DNA of 41,966 bases, from IMG/VR virus record IMGVR_UViG_3300045988_069551; one strand, 5' to 3'. The first letter of the stretch is position 1; each line of letters starts with the position of its first letter. This stretch comes from a virus. Position numbers and translations under genes: made by a program. This document shows positions 2,136 to 25,795 of the stretch, in pieces. The notes under the pieces are model-generated. The model was not told the DNA's origin, searched no databases, and saw only the letters and a program-made list of their open reading frames with translations.

Positions 2136-3496
2136 TTCTCATCCTCCTCGAATCCAATCGTCTGCCGGTACGGGATCCATGCGTACTGATTGGCGTTAAT
2201 CGTATGGTCATTGCGATCCTCCGGGATGTCCTTGTCCTCATCCCAGCTGTATCGGTCAAGCTCTCCCAGATGCTCCCTGCAGGTATCGACAACCAGATAG
2301 CACCCCTGCTGGATCCAACCTAGCTGCAGTTTAATACGGTCGATAATCTCCACTTTTTTGTATGACTCTATAAAATTGTACATGCATCCGTGCAGGCGCT
2401 TGTACTTACGTAGCTCCGTAATCGTCGCTGCATCTGCGCAGTCAACAAATGTATCTTTCGCAAATCCCCAATCTTTGCGGCACTGCTCCAGGAAGGACAC
2501 GAATTTAACCGCCGTATCGGAAGGTGCCAGCGGTTGATCCAGATCAGCATTGCTGTATGTCTTCTCCGCCAACGTGATCAGCTTACGATCTTCCGTGATG
2601 CCTTGGAATATCATGGCAATCGTATCCGGAGACTTGCTGGAATATGATGTATCCAGGCCGACCGTAAATTTCTTGAATTGTATCTTCCCCGCTTTAACCT
2701 GCTGTTTCACCCATGCAACGGTTACTACATGTTTTGCCCGGTCAAAGTTCGGGAAGATCAGGCCCGTTGCTTTTCCACGCAGGCCCTTTATCTTATTTTT
2801 CCAGATCTTTGTGCCAGGTGGCGTGTTCTGGATGATCCGCTCCAGCTTTTCTTTTGGAAGTCCCAGGTTGTGGGCAAAAGAAAAGAACCAATGAACCCAG
2901 CCGGGTTTTGGTTCCTCTTTCAATTCATCTCTAATTTCCTGCGGCGTCTCGTCCTCCCATTCGGGAAGCGGACGGGAACAGTTGATATACTCCTTGTACA
3001 CATCCAGATTCGGATCATCCGGGTTAAGGGTAGCCATCAAGTAATCGCTACGCATGGCCGACTCACGAACAAATTCAATATCCGCCGTGTTAATCTCGTC
3101 AATATACAGACAGCCGTACTGGCCACCCAGGGCATCTTTCCACTTGCGCTTGTTTCCATACCCGACGACAAATATAATCTTGTCGCCTCCGGACGTATGG
3201 AAAAGGATGTGTGGCATCTTGTACTCTCCGGATCCATTGCCCTTGTACTCCACCAACACGCCGAAGTCATCCAGAATGCCCAGATCCTTTTGTATAATAT
3301 TCTTCTCGGCGGCGCCGGTATCATCGGCAGCAAGAATGTGCAGCTTTTTTGGACTCTCCGCCACCTTAAGCATGAACTTAAACAGTCCTACGGTTGTCTT
3401 TCCCGCGGCTGTAGTCCCTTCCAGAAATTCTACTGGTGCATCACAGCGGAGGAATGCCTTGTACTTTTCGGACAACAGCAATCTCTCATCACTCAC
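2132..3496 (-). CDS. terL: Terminase large subunit
   Basis: 454 aa. N-terminal P-loop GTTAAGKTT, Walker B-like CLYIDE, C-terminal nuclease-type acidic residues. Lies between terS and portal. Confidence 0.9.
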   Translation of the reverse strand: MSDERLLLSEKYKAFLRCDAPVEFLEGTTAAGKTTVGLFKFMLKVAESPKKLHILAADDTGAAEKNIIQKDLGILDDFGVLVEYKGNGSGEYKMPHILFHTSGGDKIIFVVGYGNKRKWKDALGGQYGCLYIDEINTADIEFVRESAMRSDYLMATLNPDDPNLDVYKEYINCSRPLPEWEDETPQEIRDELKEEPKPGWVHWFFSFAHNLGLPKEKLERIIQNTPPGTKIWKNKIKGLRGKATGLIFPNFDRAKHVVTVAWVKQQVKAGKIQFKKFTVGLDTSYSSKSPDTIAMIFQGITEDRKLITLAEKTYSNADLDQPLAPSDTAVKFVSFLEQCRKDWGFAKDTFVDCADAATITELRKYKRLHGCMYNFIESYKKVEIIDRIKLQLGWIQQGCYLVVDTCREHLGELDRYSWDEDKDIPEDRNDHTINANQYAWIPYRQTIGFEEDEK

Positions 3497-3996
3497 TATC
3501 CATCGCCCCTCATCTGCTGGAGCAAGTCATCCAACTTTGTCTTCTCGGAATCCAGTACGCCTGACAGCTCAACTTTGTCTTTAAACATTCCCATATGCTT
3601 GCCCAGGAGCTCCAACGCCTTGAGCTTATCCGCCATCTTTATTTCACGCTCCAGGCCATCATCGCCGAATGTTTTTACCTTAACCGATTGGATAGCCGCG
3701 GTATCTTCTGAAAGGGCGTCTTCCTTGACTGTTGCTGTCTTTGGGTCAATTACATCAACCGCGTTGACAAACGCCACCTTCGCCAGCTCCATCACAACCC
3801 GGTCAGCATTGACTCCTGTACGCTTAGACCGTTCGGCCATTTCCCTGTCTATGCACGCGCGAATGTTAGGTTTTGTTAAGTTCTCACACCCAATCTCTTT
3901 TGCTGTATCTGGGCTGTACCCCGCCCTTATGGCTGCCTGAGTGGCATTCAAGTCTATCAGGTATTCTTCTGCGAATCTCTTCTGTTTTTTTGTCAT
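3496..3996 (-). CDS. terS: Terminase small subunit (Terminase_2 / P27-like)
   Basis: N-terminus MTKKQKRFAEEYLIDLNATQAAIRAGYS is the hallmark of this terS family. SD GAAGGAGGTGA lies upstream. 1-nt overlap with the terL start. Confidence 0.9.
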   Translation of the reverse strand: MTKKQKRFAEEYLIDLNATQAAIRAGYSPDTAKEIGCENLTKPNIRACIDREMAERSKRTGVNADRVVMELAKVAFVNAVDVIDPKTATVKEDALSEDTAAIQSVKVKTFGDDGLEREIKMADKLKALELLGKHMGMFKDKVELSGVLDSEKTKLDDLLQQMRGDG

Positions 3997-4019
3997 TCAG
4001 GCTCACCTCCTTCACATAG

Positions 4020-4057
4020 AAAAAGAGACACCCTGCTCATAACCAGCCCGGTGTCCT
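4020..4057 (-). terminator. Intrinsic terminator closing the dGTPase cassette
   Basis: Minus-strand RNA forms GGACACC...(16-nt loop)...GGUGUCU followed by CUUUUUCU. Arms are at 4050-4055 / 4027-4032, with the U-tract from the A-run at 4020-4024. Confidence 0.6.
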
Positions 4058-4066
4058 TATCCATAA

Positions 4067-4654
4067 TTACTGTATTGTTCTAGCCTCATAAAATACTAAG
4101 TACTCATCATGCTTAGGTTTTTTACTATTATCACAAGAATAAGCAAAACTCCATTCAAGCAATGCACTTTTTCCCTCTAATAAATCATCCCTAAATATTT
4201 TTTTAATTTCCGGAATATATTTTTTCAGCTCACCTATTTCCTGTTCAGTTAAAAACTCTGTGTTACCTATTCTTTCTTCATGACTATTAATTAATATTGT
4301 TACTTCACAATTTGAATGTGTAACTAAATTCCACAAATCATCCTTTACAGCTTCTATCACAATACGCTCTCTGCTTACACATAATGTGCCACTTTTTTTT
4401 GCAATAAAAAATGGGTAGTATATCACCATTCCTTTATCATTTATTTGCATCAATAAATTATCAGCGAATGCCTTTGCCTTATCAGCCTTCGCACCAATCA
4501 ATCGAGGCAGGTTCATGTCGTCCCCCCGATATACCGCACTCCTTATAGTCCATAGGTATTTACCATCAAATTGTTCTCCTCCCGTATACTGTTTCCAGGG
4601 AATAGATGGTAATTTCATATTGTTTAACTCTAAAAAACCCATTAATTTATTCAT
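4067..4654 (-). CDS. Hypothetical protein, partner of the dGTPase-like gene
   Basis: 195 aa. SD AGGTGA sits inside the end of the upstream gene, with only 7 nt between its stop and this ATG. Same AT-rich composition as that gene. No family recognised with confidence. Confidence 0.8.
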   Translation of the reverse strand: MNKLMGFLELNNMKLPSIPWKQYTGGEQFDGKYLWTIRSAVYRGDDMNLPRLIGAKADKAKAFADNLLMQINDKGMVIYYPFFIAKKSGTLCVSRERIVIEAVKDDLWNLVTHSNCEVTILINSHEERIGNTEFLTEQEIGELKKYIPEIKKIFRDDLLEGKSALLEWSFAYSCDNSKKPKHDEYLVFYEARTIQ

Positions 4655-4661
4655 ACTTCAC

Positions 4662-5978
4662 CTAATATTGAAATTTTCTGCCTGAATACTTTTCATATAT
4701 AGTAATTGCATATGATTCCATCATGCCTGCTATGTAGTCACATATTAGCCTTTGCTGAAACAAGTCTTTGTTATTATCTGATAAATCACTATACTGCTCC
4801 ATCAACTCTTCTGCCCTATACTCAGGCGGCAAATACATCGTATATTCAGTATAAAATTCTTTTAAAAATTCCAAAACTCTATTTCCATTTTGTTCATAAG
4901 CATAAACATCATCATTATGATTAATACATTGAAATACCAATTTTTTAAGTCCGTGAACAAGCTCACCATATGTTATGAATCCAAGTTCTTCAGTATGCAT
5001 ACTTCCTGTTAATAACTTTTGTTCTTCAGTAATTGGTACTAACGAAACATCTTTTAAAAATAAATTAATAAGCATAGATGTTAATTCTTGTCTGAATAAT
5101 TTTGAATACTGCGTAGAATCTATCTTATTATGTCCATACCCCGATTTTTCTTTAGCATCATCCACCAACTCTACTAACTTTAGATAACAATCATTATCTC
5201 CAAACTTTGCTTTATAATCATGTAAGAGTTCGTCTATCGTAAATGCTTTAATTCGTAAGCCATCCTCTAAATCATGTGCAGCATATGCAATCTCATCTGC
5301 GACATCAACTATCTGAACATCAAGAGTCCTAATTTTTAAGTCAGTTTCAGATATAAACTTTGATAATAAATCATAATCATCATCATATATAAATTTTTGC
5401 GATTTTTTATCTTTTTTATATTTTTCGATATCAAATTTATTAAAATACTTCACTACACTAAACATCCCACGATAAGTTAAATTAAGCCCCCTAAAATCCG
5501 GGCGCTTCTTCTCAACATTTGTTAAGATTCTAAGAGTTTGTGCATTTCCTTCGAACCCACCACATTCTAAAAACAATTCATTTAATTTCCTCTCACCCGA
5601 ATGTCCAAATGGAGGATTTCCTATATCATGTGCCAAAGCTCCTGCTTCAACTAAATAGCTTTCTCCTTCGGCATATTGTATTGCACTTGCTATAGATCTT
5701 GCAATTTGTGCCACCTCCAAACTATGCGTAAGACGATTTCTAAAAAATTGATCATTTTTTATACCAAGTAATTGCATCTTTCCCTGTAATCTTCTAAAAG
5801 AGGAAGAATACATAATTCTAGCATAATCTCTTTGAAATGGTCCATCAGGTCTATATCGAGATTCTTCTTCATGGATATAGGATTCCATACTGTCGGTTTT
5901 AATTGGATTTAAATAAACCCTTTTTATTTTGTCAGAATCAATTTCCAATGGACTTTTTGAAATACTAATATTACTCAT
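4662..5978 (-). CDS. dGTPase-family HD-domain dNTP triphosphohydrolase-like protein
   Basis: Motifs RLTHSLEVAQIARSIA and ALAHDIGNPPFGHSGE plus DVADEIAYAAHDLEDG are characteristic of Dgt-type triphosphohydrolases. The ATG at 5978 has GGAGG 9 nt upstream; the ORF track extends to 6002. Confidence 0.85.
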   Translation of the reverse strand: MSNISISKSPLEIDSDKIKRVYLNPIKTDSMESYIHEEESRYRPDGPFQRDYARIMYSSSFRRLQGKMQLLGIKNDQFFRNRLTHSLEVAQIARSIASAIQYAEGESYLVEAGALAHDIGNPPFGHSGERKLNELFLECGGFEGNAQTLRILTNVEKKRPDFRGLNLTYRGMFSVVKYFNKFDIEKYKKDKKSQKFIYDDDYDLLSKFISETDLKIRTLDVQIVDVADEIAYAAHDLEDGLRIKAFTIDELLHDYKAKFGDNDCYLKLVELVDDAKEKSGYGHNKIDSTQYSKLFRQELTSMLINLFLKDVSLVPITEEQKLLTGSMHTEELGFITYGELVHGLKKLVFQCINHNDDVYAYEQNGNRVLEFLKEFYTEYTMYLPPEYRAEELMEQYSDLSDNNKDLFQQRLICDYIAGMMESYAITIYEKYSGRKFQY

Positions 5979-6034
5979 ATATGATCTCCTCCGCACATAC
6001 ACCCCAATACCAAAGCATCACCACAATTATATTA

Positions 6035-6063
6035 ATAATATACCATATTCTGACAATTATCAA
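6035..6063 (-). promoter_or_regulatory. Sigma-70-like promoter for the dGTPase cassette
   Basis: On the minus strand: TTGATA (6063-6058), 17-nt spacer, TATTAT (6040-6035). About 55 nt upstream of the ATG at 5978. Confidence 0.5.
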
Positions 6064-6110
6064 CAAATTGTAGACACGTTTTCAATTATATGCGTTATAA
6101 TTTCATCCAT

Positions 6111-6146
6111 AAAAAAACGCCCCGCACTTTCATGCAGGACGTTTTT
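6111..6146 (-). terminator. Intrinsic terminator upstream of the dGTPase cassette
   Basis: Minus-strand RNA ACGUCCUGCA-UGAAAG-UGCGGGGCGU forms a 10-bp stem (two G-U pairs) followed by U7. On the plus strand the same stem has two C-A mismatches, so it is stronger leftward. Confidence 0.7.
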
Positions 6147-6174
6147 CAATAGGTGTATGAAGGAGGTCATACTT

Positions 6175-6273
6175 ATGAGCTATGTCCCATTATATACAAA
6201 AGACTCCCCGCTATATAACGGAGAGCCTTTCAGCCATAATATGTATGGCTATCTCAAGGATGATACTTATTAA
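6175..6273 (+). CDS. Possible 32-aa Tyr-rich peptide (MSYVPLYTKDSPLYNGEPFSHNMYGYLKDDTY)
   Basis: GAAGGAGG at 6159-6166, 8-nt spacer, then ATG. Possible promoter TAGACA(6071)-19 nt-TATAAT(6096), divergent from the cassette promoter. Short ORF, weak call. Confidence 0.3.
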   Translation: MSYVPLYTKDSPLYNGEPFSHNMYGYLKDDTY

Positions 6274-6390
6274 TGCCCCAAGGGCTCTGTCTTCTATCCT
6301 GCCGGTAAACGGCTGTGTCTTGAGAAAACACCACCGAACAATTGATCCAATCGTTCTAGAATAACTATATCATACTTACCGTGTACCATT

Positions 6391-6888
6391 CTATACCATT
6401 TTGAAATTTTTTAAAGCTTTTGCATGGATTCTGTGAGTGTGTGTCCATTTTAATCCCATAATCCCACAAATAACTTCCCAGCTCTCACCAAGCAGATACC
6501 GGTATGTAAGAATCTCCTGCTCACGTTCGTCTTCCACTAACTTGATTTTGTGGTATATCTCCGTATACTTCTCGATAGCATTTAGGCGGTCTCGTTCTAA
6601 TTCCTCCATAAGCTCATCCATCTTAACAGCATAACCAGACATGTCGGTTATATTGGAGCCGTGTGGCATATCATCATACTTTACGGACGGACACATCTCA
6701 TTAAGTCTAAGCTGTTGTATCTGGTCTAGAGTCATCTTCTCTTTTCTTTTTGCTGCAAGATACCCATTCAGGTAATCTTTTTTATTTTGATTGTCCTGCC
6801 ATGCCTGCTCCTTCACATCATTTTCCCGCACTGGCATCATTCTCCTTTTCTTTGCATACTCTTGCCACATACTCCACCGCCGTTTCAC
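6391..6888 (-). CDS. Putative late-gene transcriptional activator (sigma-70 region-4-like HTH; RinA/ArpU/DUF1492-like)
   Basis: C-terminus EQEILTYRYLLGESWEVICGIMGLKWTHTHRIHAKALKNF resembles a region-4 HTH. It sits where late activators usually lie, upstream of terS. Start is uncertain (GTG 6888, ATG 6840/6837, GTG 6831). Confidence 0.6.
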   Translation of the reverse strand: MKRRWSMWQEYAKKRRMMPVRENDVKEQAWQDNQNKKDYLNGYLAAKRKEKMTLDQIQQLRLNEMCPSVKYDDMPHGSNITDMSGYAVKMDELMEELERDRLNAIEKYTEIYHKIKLVEDEREQEILTYRYLLGESWEVICGIMGLKWTHTHRIHAKALKNFKMV

Positions 6889-7057
6889 GCTTCTTTTCCA
6901 TCTGCTCTCCCTGTTCTTGCAGTAGCTTCCCGGCCTGGTATGCTACCGGCCGTCTAAACCACTTTACGGCATTACTGTCAGGAGCATCCTCCGCCATATG
7001 CTTCATGTCCTTCCTTCTGACATCGTCAGCCTTTCTTTTCGCTTTTTTGTGATTCAT
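6818..7057 (-). CDS. Hypothetical basic protein
   Basis: 79 aa. Excellent SD AGGAGGGAAC directly before the ATG at 7057. Confidence 0.6.
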   Translation of the reverse strand: MNHKKAKRKADDVRRKDMKHMAEDAPDSNAVKWFRRPVAYQAGKLLQEQGEQMEKKRETAVEYVARVCKEKENDASAGK

Positions 7058-7081
7058 GTTCCCTCCTAAATTTGGGTTTAG

Positions 7082-7852
7082 TTATATATCCAACATTTCT
7101 TTAAGTACCTTAAAAACAGGATATACCTGTTGCGGGACTACTGCATTTCCGTAGCACTGCATTCTTTCTTTGTAACGCTTATATCCGTCCACCCGATCGG
7201 GAATCCCATCATCCACTCCACATACTGGGGGTTTATGTACTGCCCAATACGTTCCGGGTAAATAATCCCAAGGCTGGAGCAGAGTGCTTGTCCATGATTT
7301 CCGTTGTGCTCCGTCGGCGTCTGTTTCCGAATCGGCTTGAAGTCTTGGCTCGCCCTTGGAGATGCCAATAATAAAAACCCTGTATCTCTCATGTGGCGCC
7401 GCGACAGCGTAAGCCGGTACACAGAACGTCCTGACTTCGTAGCCTTCCTTTTCCAAATCGGTACAAACGGACTCATGTATTGTTGATAACAGCCCATTAA
7501 CATTTTCTCCAACAACAAAGTGCGGCCGCAACTCTCTGACGACTCTACAAAACTCCGGCCATAAGTGTCGTTCATCATTTTCAGCCTTTCGTTTTCCGAT
7601 AACACTGTGCGGCTGGCATGGGAATCCCCCTGATATAACGCTAACTGTCCGTAAACCTGTTTTTTCATAAAAATCTCCTCCCGTTAATGTCTTTATATCT
7701 CTCCATCTTGGCACGTCTGGCCAGTGTCTTTCTAATACTGCTGTCGGATAATCTGCATATTCGCATTGCCCTACAGTTTCAAAACCTACCCATTCCGCAG
7801 CCAAATCCAGTCCACCAATACCAGAAAACAAACTCAAATGTGTATACCTCAT
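7082..7852 (-). CDS. DNA (cytosine-5) methyltransferase, compact, orphan
   Basis: Motif I FSGIGG, motif IV GGFPCQPHS, motif VI GENV, motif VIII-like HERYRVF, motif X GNAVVPQ. Only 256 aa, and no restriction endonuclease partner is seen. Confidence 0.85.
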   Translation of the reverse strand: MRYTHLSLFSGIGGLDLAAEWVGFETVGQCEYADYPTAVLERHWPDVPRWRDIKTLTGGDFYEKTGLRTVSVISGGFPCQPHSVIGKRKAENDERHLWPEFCRVVRELRPHFVVGENVNGLLSTIHESVCTDLEKEGYEVRTFCVPAYAVAAPHERYRVFIIGISKGEPRLQADSETDADGAQRKSWTSTLLQPWDYLPGTYWAVHKPPVCGVDDGIPDRVDGYKRYKERMQCYGNAVVPQQVYPVFKVLKEMLDI

Positions 7853-7911: not shown

Positions 7912-8124
7912 TTAAATGCCAGTTTTGCTACTTAAAGCATCCCTTATCTGCGCCGAAAGAACCGTCTCCCTGCCATTCGTGTTTTCGATTTCTTCCGCTG
8001 CCTGTTCTAGTAAATTGCTTACATAATCTATGTAAGTAACAAGTATTCTCGCATATTGAGCCGCAACAGATTGATAATTTTGCTTTTTGGCCCATTCATA
8101 GGCCAACTTTTCTTCTTCATTCAC
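7912..8124 (-). CDS. Hypothetical protein
   Basis: GTG at 8124 lies 9 nt after the GGAGG of the junction motif (8134-8148). The ORF-track start at 8190 would overlap the upstream gene. Confidence 0.6.
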   Translation of the reverse strand: MNEEEKLAYEWAKKQNYQSVAAQYARILVTYIDYVSNLLEQAAEEIENTNGRETVLSAQIRDALSSKTGI

Positions 8125-8153
8125 TTTCGATTTCCTCCTAAATGTTAAAATTG

Positions 8154-8378
8154 TTAATTGGATACTATCGGCAAAAATTGAAACGTCCATGCCTCATCCA
8201 TAATGGATACCAGATTCCCATCTTCATTGATTGCCAACACATCAATTGTTTTTGGTTTAATAATGGTATCCCTATCTTCCCAGTCCATTCCTTCCGGCAT
8301 CCTTATTTCTGCTATAGCTACCGCATTGAGCACCTTGTCTCCATGTATCACCTTAAATCTACTTAAATCAGTCCACAT
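8154..8378 (-). CDS. Hypothetical protein
   Basis: 74 aa. ATG at 8378 preceded by AAAGGAA. Confidence 0.6.
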   Translation of the reverse strand: MWTDLSRFKVIHGDKVLNAVAIAEIRMPEGMDWEDRDTIIKPKTIDVLAINEDGNLVSIMDEAWTFQFLPIVSN

Positions 8379-8409
8379 AATATATTCCTTTCTAGATTTC
8401 GCCTAAATG

Positions 8410-8577
8410 TTAATCTTCTATATCTTCCTCTTCCCAGTGTTCACAGTCATCCAGAAAACCTGTCTCTTGCAATAATTTTTCGCTTTCTGCATTGATGCAG
8501 ATCATATGTATGCTATCAATGCTGTCGCTTACCGGATAATGATGTTCACAATACATACATGTTCTATTCATCCGCAT
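8410..8577 (-). CDS. Hypothetical Cys-containing mini-protein (MRMNRTCMYCEHH...DDCEHWEEEDIED)
   Basis: Below the ORF-track size cutoff; found by hand translation. Its stop lies inside a junction motif. The second ATG at 8571 has better SD spacing. Confidence 0.55.
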   Translation of the reverse strand: MRMNRTCMYCEHHYPVSDSIDSIHMICINAESEKLLQETGFLDDCEHWEEEDIED

Positions 8578-8590
8578 ACTCCTTTAAATG

Positions 8591-8752
8591 TTAATACGAT
8601 TCTCTTTTGAGCCATTCCAGCGCGTCAGCCACCTCGTCAGCACGATAGGCAATAATGTCCAAATCATCTCGATACAATTTTGCCTCTACTGTTGCCAGGA
8701 AATGCGCCAGCTCCTCATCTGTCATTGCTCTGATCCTTTCCGTATTTTTCAT
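8591..8752 (-). CDS. Hypothetical 53-aa protein, paralog A (MKNTERIRAMTDEELAHFLATVEAKLYRDDLDIIAYRADEVADALEWLKRESY)
   Basis: Hand translation. SD AGGAGGGGCAGG before the ATG. A near-identical copy lies at 11816-11977. Confidence 0.7.
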   Translation of the reverse strand: MKNTERIRAMTDEELAHFLATVEAKLYRDDLDIIAYRADEVADALEWLKRESY

Positions 8753-8774
8753 CCTGCCCCTCCTAAATGTTAAG

Positions 8775-9059
8775 TTACCAAATCAACGCCTGACCACATC
8801 TATTGCAAAAGTTATTCGAACAAGTAACCATACTAAGACACTCTGGACAATGGTGTACCTTTGTTCCTGCCTTGAATACCACATGCCCAATTTTCATATC
8901 CTTGTCAAATGTTTCTTCTTTGGTCTTCTGTGGAATTTGCCTTTGCAGGGCTTCATCTGCATCTTTCAGGGCTTCATACAAATATTCATTACACGTATTA
9001 CGTCCCGCATTTCCCATAAAATTTCTAATAGTGCTTACACTTTTAACTGCATCCATCAT
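8775..9059 (-). CDS. Hypothetical zinc-ribbon protein
   Basis: C-terminus is HHCPECLSMVTCSNNFCNRCGQ. ATG at 9059/9056 is preceded by GAAGGAAAG. The ORF-track start at 9176 has no SD and overlaps the upstream gene by 83 nt. Confidence 0.55.
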   Translation of the reverse strand: MMDAVKSVSTIRNFMGNAGRNTCNEYLYEALKDADEALQRQIPQKTKEETFDKDMKIGHVVFKAGTKVHHCPECLSMVTCSNNFCNRCGQALIW

Positions 9060-9093
9060 ATCTGTTTCTTTCCTTCGGTTCTCCCGAAAAATT

Positions 9094-9261
9094 TTAAAAA
9101 TCGCATCCGATAATGCAAGCAAAGCAACTGCAATCAGTACATTCTCCGTGTCCTGTTTCTGAACACTCTTTTGCATTATCGCACAGGTTTTTTGGGATTT
9201 TAGTTACAAAATATCCATTGTTTTTTAGTAAAGTAATTGCTTTTTTGATTTCTTCTTCCAT
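9094..9261 (-). CDS. Hypothetical Cys-rich mini-protein
   Basis: ATG at 9261 (MEEEIKKAITLL...) follows a junction motif with GGAGG. C-terminus is CSETGHGECTDCSCFACIIGC. Confidence 0.55.
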   Translation of the reverse strand: MEEEIKKAITLLKNNGYFVTKIPKNLCDNAKECSETGHGECTDCSCFACIIGCDF

Positions 9262-23335: not shown

Positions 23336-23407
23336 GATGTTACGCCTGATGGCTTAACATATATGTGGTGTTTTCTTAATACAGGTACAAAAGAAACGGG
23401 GGATAAT

Positions 23408-24463
23408 ATGGACTTTAATGAAGCTATCAAGCAATTTTCAAAAAGAGTGGGGGCCTTAAAAGAAACTATTAAGACAGAAGAAGCAACCAAGATGTCTTTG
23501 ATAGTTCCGATCTTTCAATTACTTGGGTACGATGTGTTTAATCCGCTAGAGTTTTGCCCTGAGTATACAGCAGATGTGGGTATTAAAAAAGGGGAAAAAG
23601 TAGATTATGCAATATTAGAAGACGGTAAGCCTTCGATATTGATTGAATGTAAAAGTTGCACAGAACAGCTAGACAAACATTCTTCGCAATTATTTCGTTA
23701 TTTTGGAACGACACCTGCAAAATTCGGTATTCTAACGAATGGTATAATATACAGGTTTTTTACCGATTTAGAAGAAGCTAATAAAATGGATTTAATTCCC
23801 TTCCTGGAGATCGACATAACCAACATAAAGGATGCATCCATAAATGAGATAAAGAAATTCTGCAAAGATTCTTTCGATAAAGATAAAATATTTAGCACAG
23901 CAGAAGAGTTGAAGTATTCTGGCCTTATTAAAGATTATCTTTCTAAAGAATTGGATAACCCTTCGGAAGATTTTGTTAAACATGTGCTCTATTATATTTA
24001 TGATGGCCAAAGAACTCAAAAAGTAATTGAAAAGTATCAGCCATTAGTTAAAAAAGCGTTTAATGCATTTATAAACGATATTGTAAATCAAAAAATTGCA
24101 TCTGCACTATCAAAAGATGAAGTAGAAAACGATGCTTCCGAAAATGAAGAGGTGGTAGAACCTCATTCAAAGATAGTGACAACAGAAGAAGAACTGGAAG
24201 CATTCTACATAATCCGTGGTATTTTGGCCGAAGTAGTTCCCGTAGAAGATATCGTGCATAGAGATACTGAAAGTTATTTCGGTATTCTATATAAAGACAA
24301 TAATAGAAAACCTATTTGCCGCATAAATCTGGATAAAAAGAATAAACAATTATTTATTCCGGATGAAAACAAAAAATTTGAACGCATTTATATTGATTCC
24401 CTGAACGAGCTTTACAAGTATAAAAAGCAGCTTGAGGAAGTTGTGAAAAGATATACTGAATAA
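23408..24463 (+). CDS. Stand-alone PD-(D/E)xK nuclease-fold protein (type I restriction HsdR N-terminal-domain type)
   Basis: ATG at 23408 is preceded by ACGGGGGA. EEATKMSLIVPIFQLLGY...KVDYAILEDGKPSILIECKS...SQLFRY is the HsdR_N-type D...ExK core. 351 aa, with no helicase or methylase domains. Confidence 0.7.
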   Translation: MDFNEAIKQFSKRVGALKETIKTEEATKMSLIVPIFQLLGYDVFNPLEFCPEYTADVGIKKGEKVDYAILEDGKPSILIECKSCTEQLDKHSSQLFRYFGTTPAKFGILTNGIIYRFFTDLEEANKMDLIPFLEIDITNIKDASINEIKKFCKDSFDKDKIFSTAEELKYSGLIKDYLSKELDNPSEDFVKHVLYYIYDGQRTQKVIEKYQPLVKKAFNAFINDIVNQKIASALSKDEVENDASENEEVVEPHSKIVTTEEELEAFYIIRGILAEVVPVEDIVHRDTESYFGILYKDNNRKPICRINLDKKNKQLFIPDENKKFERIYIDSLNELYKYKKQLEEVVKRYTE

Positions 24464-24616: not shown

Positions 24617-25795
24617 ATGGCACTGATGACCTGCCCAGAATGCGAAGGAAAAGTATCCAGCAAAGCCATTATATGCCCTCATTGCGGCTATCCGATGCAG
24701 GATAAGCCAATCCCTACCAAACCAACTAAAAAGGGCAAGAAGCGGCGCCCTAATGGCTCAGGGACAATCGTAAAGCTATCCGGCAACCGAAGGAAGCCGT
24801 ACCAAGTCCGTGTGAACACACGCCTGGACGACCGCGGGTATCCGGCGTTTGACATCTTAGACAACTTCCCAGATCGAGTCCAGGCCGAGATAGCCCTAGC
24901 AAAATATAACGAGAACCCATATGACGTAAACCTGCGCGGTCTGACTTTTACTGAGGTCTACGAGAATTGGTACATGCGGAAGTATGGCAAAGATCCGAAC
25001 AAGAAGCAGAAGGGGCAGCGTTCGTCTGCTGAATACGCCAGCCGCGCAGCATATAAAAAATGTCTCACTCTCCATGATAAAGTCTATTCAAAACTACGAA
25101 CTCAAGAGATGCAGAAGATTGTAGACTGTCCTGACTATTCCCATTCCATGACCGAGCATATATCTTCCCTGCTGAGAAATATGGGGAAGTACGCACTGGA
25201 ATTTGACATAACCGCCAAGGACTATGCATCTTTCATAGTAATCAATAAGGAGGATGATACAGAAAAAGGCGTGCCATTTACAACAGAGGAAATGCGTAAG
25301 CTGTGGGCACACAAAGATAGCCCATTTGTAGACACCATCCTCATATACTGTTACTCCGGCTGGCGGCTAAATGAACTGGCCCGGATGCCGCTGAAAGATA
25401 TCGACCTGGAGAATAAGGTATTTAATGGCGGTCTTAAAACCCCTGCAGGCAAAAACAGGATTGTCCCCATCCATTCTGCTATCAACAGCTTTGTCAGGAC
25501 GAGATATAACCTAAACTTTAAAAGCCTGATTTACCATGATGGTAACGTGAATATCGGAGAAGGAAAATACCGTGAATATTTCGCTCAGGCTCTGCTTGAC
25601 TGCGGAATCACTACAGAACATACGCCGCATGACTGCCGCCATACCTTTAACTCTAAGTTGGACAGTTCCGGTGTAAACCTTTCCTGCAGGCTCAAACTGA
25701 TGGGCCATGCCGGTGGTAATATTAACGAGAAAGTATATACTCACAAGACCATCGATGAGCTGCGAGAAGCGGTTGAGATGATAAAGGTTCCGTGA
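24617..25795 (+). CDS. int: Tyrosine site-specific integrase with N-terminal zinc ribbon
   Basis: N-terminus CPECEGKVSSKAIICPHCG. C-terminal catalytic pattern ...GWRLNEL...HDCRHTF...GHAGGNINEKVYTH (R...HxxR...H...Y). Confidence 0.9.
   Translation: MALMTCPECEGKVSSKAIICPHCGYPMQDKPIPTKPTKKGKKRRPNGSGTIVKLSGNRRKPYQVRVNTRLDDRGYPAFDILDNFPDRVQAEIALAKYNENPYDVNLRGLTFTEVYENWYMRKYGKDPNKKQKGQRSSAEYASRAAYKKCLTLHDKVYSKLRTQEMQKIVDCPDYSHSMTEHISSLLRNMGKYALEFDITAKDYASFIVINKEDDTEKGVPFTTEEMRKLWAHKDSPFVDTILIYCYSGWRLNELARMPLKDIDLENKVFNGGLKTPAGKNRIVPIHSAINSFVRTRYNLNFKSLIYHDGNVNIGEGKYREYFAQALLDCGITTEHTPHDCRHTFNSKLDSSGVNLSCRLKLMGHAGGNINEKVYTHKTIDELREAVEMIKVP

Follow-up and report, generated by a model that had tools for sequence, protein, structure and literature searches.

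The virus record IMGVR_UViG_3300045988_069551 of IMG/VR, analysed here as a single 41,966-nucleotide (nt) stretch that we call the window, is along its whole length a temperate phage with profile matches to an integrase, a CI-like repressor, a lysis amidase, a helicase, a DUF927 primase and a C5 methylase, and its host group is the gut Firmicutes. Just upstream of terS, the gene for the small terminase, it carries a small system of two minus-strand genes in ~1.9 kb. Gene 1 (4662–5978) encodes a dGTP triphosphohydrolase (dGTPase) of 438 amino acids (aa) with HD and HD_assoc domains, the presumed effector, and gene 2 (4067–4654) encodes a 195-aa protein of an unannotated family, a minimal ATP-grasp protein according to AlphaFold2 and Foldseek and the presumed regulatory partner. 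Both open reading frames (ORFs) lie where an earlier note, made from the letters of the sequence, had placed them. We found that this cassette is an accessory element that moves horizontally and occupies a dedicated cargo slot in a temperate phage of Firmicutes, and we regard it as highly probable that its two genes form a functionally coupled module. The fuller reading, in which the cassette is a mobile two-gene defence that depletes dGTP and has an ATP-using regulatory partner, is one that we favour with moderate confidence.

Linkage of the dGTPase and its partner

Recurrence of the partner beside Dgt-like genes in other genomes had been set beforehand as a test of the proposed two-component system, and the two genes were indeed found together far beyond the window. 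Among 52 partner loci obtained from four sources, an intact dGTPase gene lay directly upstream of the partner gene on the same strand in 50, and the two exceptions were decayed copies, one with a truncated dGTPase (locus L003) and one with a fragment of the partner (L037). The locus scan for the partner used an alignment termed A1, a broader one (A2) being too divergent. Among the distinct loci listed, only L045, with 167 nt and an incomplete dGTPase match, fell outside the range of −8 to +40 nt for the distance from the dGTPase stop to the partner start. Searches from the dGTPase side captured the partner in 12/12 IMG/VR viral contigs and in 8/9 metagenome loci at an identity of at least 49%; the partner was present in 1 of the 11 assessable metagenome loci at 40–45% identity and in none of 53 at 27–32%. 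The sole close relative without a partner, L157, has an IS3-family transposase exactly at the expected partner position. In that locus (L157, 1–6276) an IS3-type transposase pair thus takes the position of the partner, and upstream of the partner-less dGTPase is a 987-aa protein with a SAMHD1-like HD domain, the C-terminal region of which, judged by eye, looks like a CYTH triphosphate-tunnel domain.

Two further dGTPase clades were found to be coupled to the partner. In L033 the partner follows, with a 1-nt gap, a dGTPase that is 27% identical to gene 1, and in L165 it overlaps by 8 nt a dGTPase that is 41% identical, beside a C5 methylase gene. A more distant homolog of ~26% identity to the partner, P0250, neighbours a dGTPase gene in the reversed order. 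The locus of P0250 (L053, 613–6259) places it between an AAA_28 protein and a 401-aa HD/HD_assoc dGTPase, in a cluster that also encodes dCTP-deaminase-family, FAD-binding and AP-endonuclease-2-fold proteins, with two types of nucleotide-depletion enzyme adjacent to each other. For 40 distinct pairs, the mean distances of the two proteins were 0.43 and 0.42 and the distance matrices correlated with r = 0.60 (Mantel test, 0/2000). The dGTPase and the partner thus evolve at equal rates, and a few discordant pairs indicate occasional shuffling between them.

The junction of the two genes in the window is equally tight. The stop codon of gene 1 is the TAG at 4664–4662 and the start codon of gene 2 is the ATG at 4654, which agrees with the spacing of 7 nt counted previously. 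The Shine-Dalgarno sequence of gene 2, which had been described as lying inside gene 1, was read from the sequence as AGGTGA at 4658–4663 on the minus strand; it overlaps the stop codon of gene 1 and is not wholly inside that gene. This overlap suggests translational coupling of the two genes. The Shine-Dalgarno sequence of gene 1, also read from the sequence, is GGAGGAG at 5986–5992 on the minus strand, 7 nt before the ATG at 5978; the longest possible start of gene 1 is a GTG at 6002.

The dGTPase and the predicted ATP-grasp protein

Profile and structure-sequence matches place gene 1 in the dGTP triphosphohydrolase family, nearest to the Vdg type. Gene 1 scored 315.1 bits against TIGR01353, above the family cut-off of 152.35, matched the Pfam domains HD (E = 1.9e-12) and HD_assoc (E = 3.2e-12) and matched the PADLOC dGTPase model PDLC02374 over nearly its full length (E = 1.5e-104). 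Its translation contains both motifs, RLTHSLEVAQ and HDIGNPPFGHSGE, that had been taken as signs of a Dgt-type enzyme. Against NF041026, the NCBIfam model of anti-phage dGTPases, it scored 265.8 bits, under the cut-off of 400. A search of PDB sequences gave Vdg as the closest solved relative (9vwa, E = 2.8e-83), followed by Sp-dGTPase (9P8W, E = 2.7e-42), and the CloA structures 9p8s to 9p8v matched only with E of 1e-19 to 1e-22.

In a HMMER alignment with Vdg, the catalytic H114 corresponds to H126 of gene 1, and R40, R44, Y47, Q81 and K146 of the Vdg dAMP pocket correspond to R50, R54, Y57, Q91 and K158; R35 of Vdg is aligned with D45, and R31 precedes the start of the alignment. H126 and the five pocket-equivalent residues are invariant in 27 partner-linked dGTPases, as are H85 and H117-D118 in the 27 homologs, and catalysis and the nucleotide-binding regulatory pocket are therefore very probably retained. 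A 15-residue insertion (residues 282–296) is specific to the main clade, that of gene 1, and together with nine further positions it marks this clade; the dGTPases of L033 and L165 lack these marks. A variant of the enzyme was seen in L038 (472–1698; IMGVR_UViG_3300008737_000060), which is otherwise the same phage as the window with a partner and a terS that are 100% identical. Its dGTPase has an in-frame deletion of 29 residues (window residues 238–266) just after DEIAYAAHDLEDGLR; the enzyme could be naturally inactivated or attenuated in this phage, or the deletion could be an artefact of assembly.

The description of the second protein as unrecognised still holds, no model of Pfam, NCBIfam, PHROGs or PADLOC having matched gene 2. 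We found 915 homologs in a 90%-clustered database, mostly 62–70% identical and from Lachnospiraceae and other gut Clostridia, and at 50% identity the family comprised 140 clusters, 101 of them with E ≤ 1e-10. An AlphaFold2 model built on 36 sequences had a predicted local distance difference test score (pLDDT) of 86.8 and a predicted template modelling score (pTM) of 0.82. When this model was compared with the PDB by Foldseek, the 50 best matches were all ATP-grasp proteins, with template modelling scores (normalized by the query) of ~0.5; nine had E ≤ 1e-3, all with a probability of 1.00. The top match was the ATP-binding domain of a rifampin phosphotransferase (5hv6, E = 3.4e-5, probability 1.00), and it was followed by HpeI (9goj), PEP synthase (2ols), D-Ala-D-Ala ligases, synapsin and ATP-citrate lyase. 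ATP-grasp proteins were also at the top in BFVD, where the best viral match was a 'PPDK PEP/pyruvate-binding' protein. The predicted structure of gene 2 is thus an ATP-grasp fold.

Gene 2 probably derives from the dikinase branch of ATP-grasp proteins. Its best structural matches belong to the class of RPH, PEP synthase and PPDK (PMC4844700), and two distant homologs, P0244 and P0254, lend independent support through fusions. In each of them a domain that matches the hidden Markov model (HMM) of the partner family end to end (positions 2–196) is followed by a C-terminally fused PEP-utilizers swivel domain, PF00391 (E = 4.9e-14 and 1.6e-20, respectively). Residues K3, R38, S88, G89, E101, E167, E190 and R192 of gene 2 show no or almost no variation in the core family. 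A non-significant hhalign alignment of the family with PPDK_N nevertheless places the motifs in a collinear order, with I-R38-S-A on V-R-S-S, K-S88-G89 on an S-containing strand, I-E101-A on I-N-A and Y-E190-A-R192-T on L-Q-C-R-P. Read by eye, the N-K3-L-M-G-F-L-E-L of gene 2 resembles the lysine motif G-G-K-x-x-x-L-x-x-L, so that the likeness to dikinases in this non-significant alignment would consist of an N-terminal Lys, an R-S-[AS] strand, an S-G strand and a C-terminal [Y/L]-[E/Q]-x-R. RPH requires Lys22, holds the alpha-phosphate by means of Arg117 and Thr136 and binds Mg2+ through Glu297 (PMC4844700). We take K3, R38, E167, E190 and R192 as candidate equivalents of the RPH ligands Lys22, Arg117 and Glu297. 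Unlike dikinases, which have ATP-grasp domains of 300–340 aa (HpeI, for example, has 340 aa; PMC12167813), gene 2 has only 195 aa and the pair lacks both a swivel histidine and substrate-binding domains; unlike in split dikinases, the neighbour of gene 2 is a nucleotide hydrolase and not a kinase subunit.

Several distant members of the partner family were observed in other settings. In L060–L062 (5001–7377), a plasmid- or phage-like element with ALP_N and MerR genes, the 211-aa family member P0185 overlaps by ~10 nt the start of a 583-aa RecJ-like DHH/DHHA1 phosphoesterase; these two may be a second system that pairs a mini ATP-grasp protein with a phosphohydrolase. In L054 (498–3640), a DUF4406 protein (nucleoside deoxyribosyltransferase-like), the P0254 fusion, a 254-aa protein of no recognised function and a stand-alone 299-aa PPDK_N protein are encoded together, P0254 lying two genes from the bona fide stand-alone PPDK_N protein, and the cluster looks like a multi-component dikinase for a nucleoside or nucleotide. 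Of the further distant relatives, one is archaeal and beside an S-adenosylmethionine synthetase gene and one is in a 120-kb phage-like contig.

A cargo slot upstream of terS

The cassette is flanked on the right by terS (3496–3996, minus strand; PF03592, E = 1.5e-45) and on the left by a gene for a sigma-region-4-like putative late transcriptional regulator (6391–6888, minus strand; phrog_36 'transcriptional regulator', E = 4.3e-15), for which Pfam gave sub-threshold matches only, to Sigma70_r4 and DUF1492. The spacing of these two genes was 116–485 nt in 14 of the 16 terS-related loci with a detectable activator homolog, which bears out the earlier view that the block interrupts a usual adjacency of late activator and terS. 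The block also stands out in composition. The G+C content of 4011–6111 is 0.321, compared with 0.485 in the left flank and 0.428 in the window; 2.1-kb segments across the 42-kb stretch had a mean of 0.43 ± 0.04 with the block as the minimum (0.32), and all of the sliding segments within 0.01 of this minimum (8/798) overlap the block. The hand-counted values of 17/60 G+C at 4081–4140 and 31/60 at 2161–2220 were exact on recount.

Three putative signals surround the two genes on the minus strand. An intrinsic-terminator hairpin with an A-run and a U-run, T1 (6112–6147), ends the transcription unit of the late regulator and is an element of the phage backbone; in the folding analysis the hairpin at 6147–6112 had a free energy of −26.8 kcal/mol and a z-score of −6.3 with none of 200 shuffles as stable, and it is followed by U7. 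Because both the A-run and the U-run are present, T1 is possibly bidirectional. A sigma-70-like promoter, TTGATA-17-TATTAT, lies at 6035–6063 and matched 10 of 12 positions in a promoter scan, in which 16 promoter-like sites were found in the AT-rich region and 13.4 ± 3.8 were expected by chance. A downstream hairpin with a U-tract, T2 (4023–4058), directly precedes the ribosome-binding site of terS and is recurrent in the phage group; folding of 4058–4023 gave −20.4 kcal/mol and a z-score of −3.5, again with none of 200 shuffles as stable, and the hairpin is followed by UCUUUUUCU. A consensus terminator scan overlooked both T1 and T2, and both were confirmed by folding.

These signals had been assigned to the cassette, which was accordingly called self-contained, and this assignment did not survive the comparison with related phages. 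We compared the region between the late regulator and terS in the window (4011–6147) with L063 (5195–7000), L064 (6875–7000), L127 (4736–7000) and L078 (4780–7000). L063 is the closest relative without the cassette, with a terS that is 98% identical, and it is homologous to the window up to position 6112 and again from position 4010, at the terS ribosome-binding site. It shares the T1 region (window 6182–6112 corresponds to L063 5195–5266, with 89% identity), and its TTGAATATTGTCATAATATGGGATATTAT is identical to the promoter 29-mer of the window at 25 of 29 positions and there precedes a different cargo gene, for a protease. The phage L064, in which the site is empty, has a hairpin of the T2 type 30 nt before terS, with TTTTTCTATG. 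In 21 of 76 related phages a hairpin followed by T4+CT(N)AT precedes terS, as compared with 2% of shuffled controls. The promoter and T1 being common to L063 and T2 recurring at the empty site, the signals are therefore parts of the slot, and only the two genes make up the cassette itself; the promoter and terminators were rejected as cassette parts on the comparison with L063, L064, L078 and L127. The promoter is present at 6063–6035 exactly as the earlier note had read it and the two terminators are real as folded structures, but none of the three is owned by the cassette. The same division applies to the supposed moron architecture, of which the atypical composition and the presence of the signals stand while their ownership by the cassette does not.

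The slot thus has the order late regulator, terminator, near-consensus promoter, cargo, hairpin and terS, and in some cases there is a tRNA gene between terS and the hairpin with its TTTTTCTATG. Its content varies among relatives. L063 carries 1.7 kb of cargo with a ClpP-like SDH-type serine protease, a small ORF and tRNA-Ile, and L127 has at the same site an AbiLi-type ATPase (PADLOC, E = 2.9e-29), a small partner of 168 aa and tRNA-Met. The dGTPase pair itself was found in only 2 of 80 terS-related phage contigs, namely L038, the phage of the window, and L078, which has at the same position a divergent allele whose two proteins are 57% and 62% identical. The cargo seen so far is therefore the dGTPase pair in two alleles, AbiLi with the 168-aa protein and tRNA-Met, the ClpP-like SDH protease with tRNA-Ile, or nothing, and the slot is empty in most of the terS-related phages. 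Given the different cargo in L063 and the AbiLi gene in L127, the site is a hotspot of cargo exchange in which defence genes are present in at least some cases.

Prophage defence hotspots and morons are known, as in the hotspots of P2 and P4. As in these, a fixed site of the backbone holds replaceable accessory or defence genes that are AT-rich, with a constitutive-looking promoter and flanking terminators; what sets the slot apart is its position in Clostridia phages, with the gene for a sigma-like late regulator on one side and terS on the other. The terS start is ~23 nt after the U-tract of T2, which leaves no space for a separate terS promoter, and late transcription therefore probably traverses the cargo and the hairpin. 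In lambda, the constitutive promoter PR' is followed by the terminator tR', and read-through depends on Q. The layout of the slot resembles this PR'-tR' region and suggests, by analogy, a control by read-through; a Q-like read-through of T2 would follow from this likeness. Such a layout would permit cargo expression both in the lysogen, with transcripts stopping at the hairpin, and in late lytic growth.

The pair is not confined to this slot. It was found in SPP1-like prophages just before terS, in prophages with a lambda-type GpA terminase and in chromosomal islands flanked by IS66 elements, and its G+C content was 0.30–0.35 in most contexts while that of the flanks ranged from 0.29 to 0.62. 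In every IS66-flanked chromosomal copy (L001–L008, 8939–10336), even in L003, a 465-aa ATPase_2/DUF234 protein is encoded ~350 nt downstream; this gene is missing from the phage-borne copies and is therefore probably a separate island gene. In L033 (2540–9170), from a rumen Ruminococcus, genes for a TIR-domain protein (6823–7608, minus strand) and a Fic/DOC protein (8031–9170, minus strand), both recognised by motifs read by eye, flank the divergent pair, with two unannotated ORFs upstream of it, and the locus looks like a defence island.

Proposed function and alternative explanations

We rate it as fairly probable that the cassette serves in anti-phage defence. In a lysogen the pair would be expressed and would protect against superinfecting phages, the active gene 1 enzyme depleting dGTP until DNA replication of the incoming phage stops. 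This agrees in outline with the superinfection immunity proposed earlier, of which the coupling of the two genes and their status as accessory cargo on a temperate phage are borne out by comparative genomics, and the immunity role itself is probable. Gene 2 would most likely use ATP to regulate the dGTPase, and whether it is a catalytically active ATP-dependent regulator is in our estimate evenly poised.

Known systems provide both the effector and precedents for such a partner. The stand-alone anti-phage dGTPases Sp-dGTPase (10.1101/2021.04.26.441389) and Vdg belong to the same HD + HD_assoc family and reside on mobile, defence-rich DNA. Vdg, an enzyme of Vibrio cholerae, protects Escherichia coli against both single-stranded and double-stranded DNA phages and is allosterically enhanced by dAMP (PMC13519002). 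These are single-gene systems of Proteobacteria, whereas the gene 1 clade is found in Clostridia and their phages, almost always with a coupled second gene, and differs from the NCBIfam anti-phage dGTPases in its score (266 against the 400-bit cut-off) and in its own insertion at 282–296. The earlier statement that Dgt-type enzymes are single-gene defences is right for Sp-dGTPase and Vdg, but Clover, with the dGTPase CloA and the nucleotidyltransferase (NTase) CloB, is a published two-gene system (PMC12265719). In Clover, CloA is activated by dTTP, restrained by p3diT made by CloB and toxic on its own, and p3diT binds an arginine-rich pocket at the CloA dimer interface (PMC12265719). The cassette resembles Clover in being a two-gene operon of a defensive-type dGTPase and a nucleotide-using accessory enzyme, with the arginine-rich interface pocket kept in gene 1. 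It differs in that the partner has a predicted ATP-grasp fold and is not a Pol-beta NTase, with no match to a family with the [D/E]h[D/E] motif in Pfam, NCBIfam or PADLOC, and in that gene 1 is nearer to Vdg (E = 2.8e-83) than to CloA (about 1e-21). Membership in Clover with a CloB-type NTase as the partner was accordingly considered and rejected, given the ATP-grasp fold of the partner and the position of the effector outside the CloA clade.

In HpeHI, CreHI and PpsAB, a separate ATP-grasp polypeptide phosphorylates a histidine of its partner in trans (PMC12167813). With these and Clover as precedents, the gene 2 protein could alter the ligand of the pocket or modify the dGTPase itself. It might act on a nucleotide in the conserved allosteric pocket of the dGTPase, or it might phosphorylate the dGTPase in trans in the manner of the stand-alone ATP-grasp subunits of two-component dikinases. 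Its role would parallel that of CloB for CloA, balancing defence against self-toxicity with a different fold and chemistry, and the regulation could take the direction of either restraint or activation. A more specific proposal, which we put forward only tentatively, is that gene 2 founds an unannotated family of minimal dikinase-type ATP-grasp regulators of nucleotide-phosphohydrolase immune effectors and (pyro)phosphorylates the dGTPase or the pocket nucleotide. If so, this would be an on/off signal by ATP-grasp chemistry that is parallel to, and chemically distinct from, the p3diT of CloB in Clover, and the mini ATP-grasp protein overlapping the RecJ-like DHH phosphoesterase in L060 would be a second system on the same principle.

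Several observations weigh against a defence of dGTPase type that is regulated by an ATP-dependent partner. The first concern the descent and activity of the partner. PF01326 (PPDK_N) matched none of 61 diverse members of the gene 2 family at E ≤ 10, the only Pfam match of these members at that threshold being PEP-utilizers in the two fusions. The hhalign comparison of the family with a cleaned PPDK_N alignment gave a probability of 0.5% and E = 0.13, and the PPDK_N HMM did not detect even the N-terminal domains of the P0244 and P0254 fusions. A profile of gene 2 searched against PDB sequences matched neither PPDK_N nor any other family, a match to an ABC-F protein (E = 0.34) being discarded as spurious. 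The proposed homology of gene 2 to PPDK_N is thus based on the modelled fold and the fusions. With its 195 aa, gene 2 reaches only ~60% of the size usual for ATP-grasp domains; it may therefore be no enzyme but a remnant that binds nucleotides or nothing other than protein. It lacks the swivel histidine domain, the usual target of phosphorylation in this class, and so does its dGTPase neighbour; moreover, a search for residues or insertions shared by the three partner-linked dGTPase clades found none, so that no acceptor site is indicated.

Other observations concern the need for the partner and the time of expression. Vdg is a stand-alone octameric enzyme that works without a partner (PMC13519002; PDB 9VWA), and L157 keeps an intact dGTPase after the loss of its partner; catalysis therefore does not depend on the partner, and tolerance of the enzyme perhaps does not either. 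The promoter at 6063–6035 is statistically no better than chance and is a property of the slot, and late transcripts probably cross the cassette, which makes expression in the lytic phase possible.

This last point leads to the first of the alternative explanations, in which the cassette is a phage-side module for the lytic cycle of the phage itself that reshapes the pools of deoxynucleoside triphosphates (dNTPs) or deoxynucleosides and thereby shuts off the replication of host or competitors or feeds salvage. Besides the position of the cassette directly upstream of the late packaging operon, the occurrence of distant partner homologs in clusters of nucleotide metabolism (L053 with a dCTP-deaminase-family protein, AAA_28 and a dGTPase; L054 with DUF4406 and PPDK_N) would fit this idea. 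We nevertheless consider it unlikely, since the cassette is accessory (2/80 terS-related phages, with the slot mostly empty), the pair is also found in non-prophage settings, namely IS66-flanked islands and a site next to TIR and Fic genes, a relative has an abortive-infection system in the slot, the window contains no DNA-modification or dNTP-synthesis genes that would require the removal of dGTP, and the closest characterised enzymes protect the host (PMC13519002).

An equally improbable explanation is an addiction module of the toxin-antitoxin kind, with the dGTPase as toxin and the ATP-grasp protein as antidote, that stabilises the mobile element and has no dedicated anti-phage role. The tight translational coupling, the spread of the pair on phages and insertion sequence (IS)-flanked islands, the truncated dGTPase beside an intact partner in L003 and the toxicity of CloA alone, which CloB neutralises in Clover (PMC12265719), would all be expected of such a module. 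An intact dGTPase is, on the other hand, kept in L157 with an IS in place of the partner, and cells tolerate related stand-alone dGTPases, which are defensive (PMC13519002; 10.1101/2021.04.26.441389). The explanation furthermore overlaps largely with defence, as many toxin-antitoxin modules are abortive-infection systems.

Phages also carry enzymes that destroy immune nucleotides, and both proteins of the cassette plausibly handle nucleotides, so that counter-defence could be imagined in which the HD enzyme and its partner degrade or modify immune nucleotide signals of the host for the benefit of the phage. This is very improbable, given that gene 1 keeps the catalytic and allosteric residue set of the Vdg dGTPase (E = 2.8e-83), that the cassette is also present in bacterial chromosomal islands and that nothing indicates cyclic-nucleotide substrates. 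That the partner has no functional tie to the dGTPase and is merely carried along with it is scarcely credible, for although some discordant pairs suggest that the genes can recombine apart, adjacency in 50/52, 12/12 and 8/9 loci contradicts it, as do the three dGTPase clades, the several phage types and chromosomal sites, the gene overlaps and the reversed order in a distant relative.

As a regulated defence, the cassette looks like a dGTPase nucleotide-depletion system with a new, unannotated accessory enzyme, and hence like a second solution within a known principle. Nucleotide depletion is an antiviral strategy shared from bacteria to human SAMHD1, and the question addressed is how dangerous dNTP-depleting enzymes stay off until infection. 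Clover is one answer, in which an accessory nucleotidyltransferase makes an inhibitory dinucleotide, and the cassette suggests a second and independent one with a different fold. The family is widespread in gut Clostridia and their prophages, with more than 900 partner sequences at 90% clustering and 140 clusters at 50%, and a context linked to function is now available for a family that lacks annotation in Pfam, NCBIfam, PHROGs and PADLOC. The cargo slot upstream of terS belongs to gut phages of a common group and offers a place in which to look for further defence genes. Literature searches for ATP-grasp, dGTPase and phage together and for a description of a dGTPase/ATP-grasp pair found no paper, most subscription journals being outside their coverage, and a 2026 survey of dGTPase architectures deals with domain fusions and stand-alone enzymes, not operon partners.

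A near-identity search of the INPHARED phage collection gave no match, no tRNA genes were found in the window, and Rfam gave no credible RNA family over 3800–7000. At 23363–24463 on the plus strand, adjoining the integrase gene (24617–25795) and near the CI-like repressor gene, lies a gene for a protein of 366 aa in which a type I restriction HSDR_N domain was detected (E = 6.6e-16); the lysogeny module may have in it a second gene of accessory or defence type. A 32-codon ORF, MSYVPLYTKDSPLYNGEPFSHNMYGYLKDDTY (6175–6273, plus strand), is situated between the late-regulator gene and T1. It has a strong GGAGG Shine-Dalgarno sequence 8 nt upstream and lies mostly within a 139-nt segment (6183–6321) that L063, a close relative, lacks; the ORF may be a small gene of accessory type, or it may be spurious.

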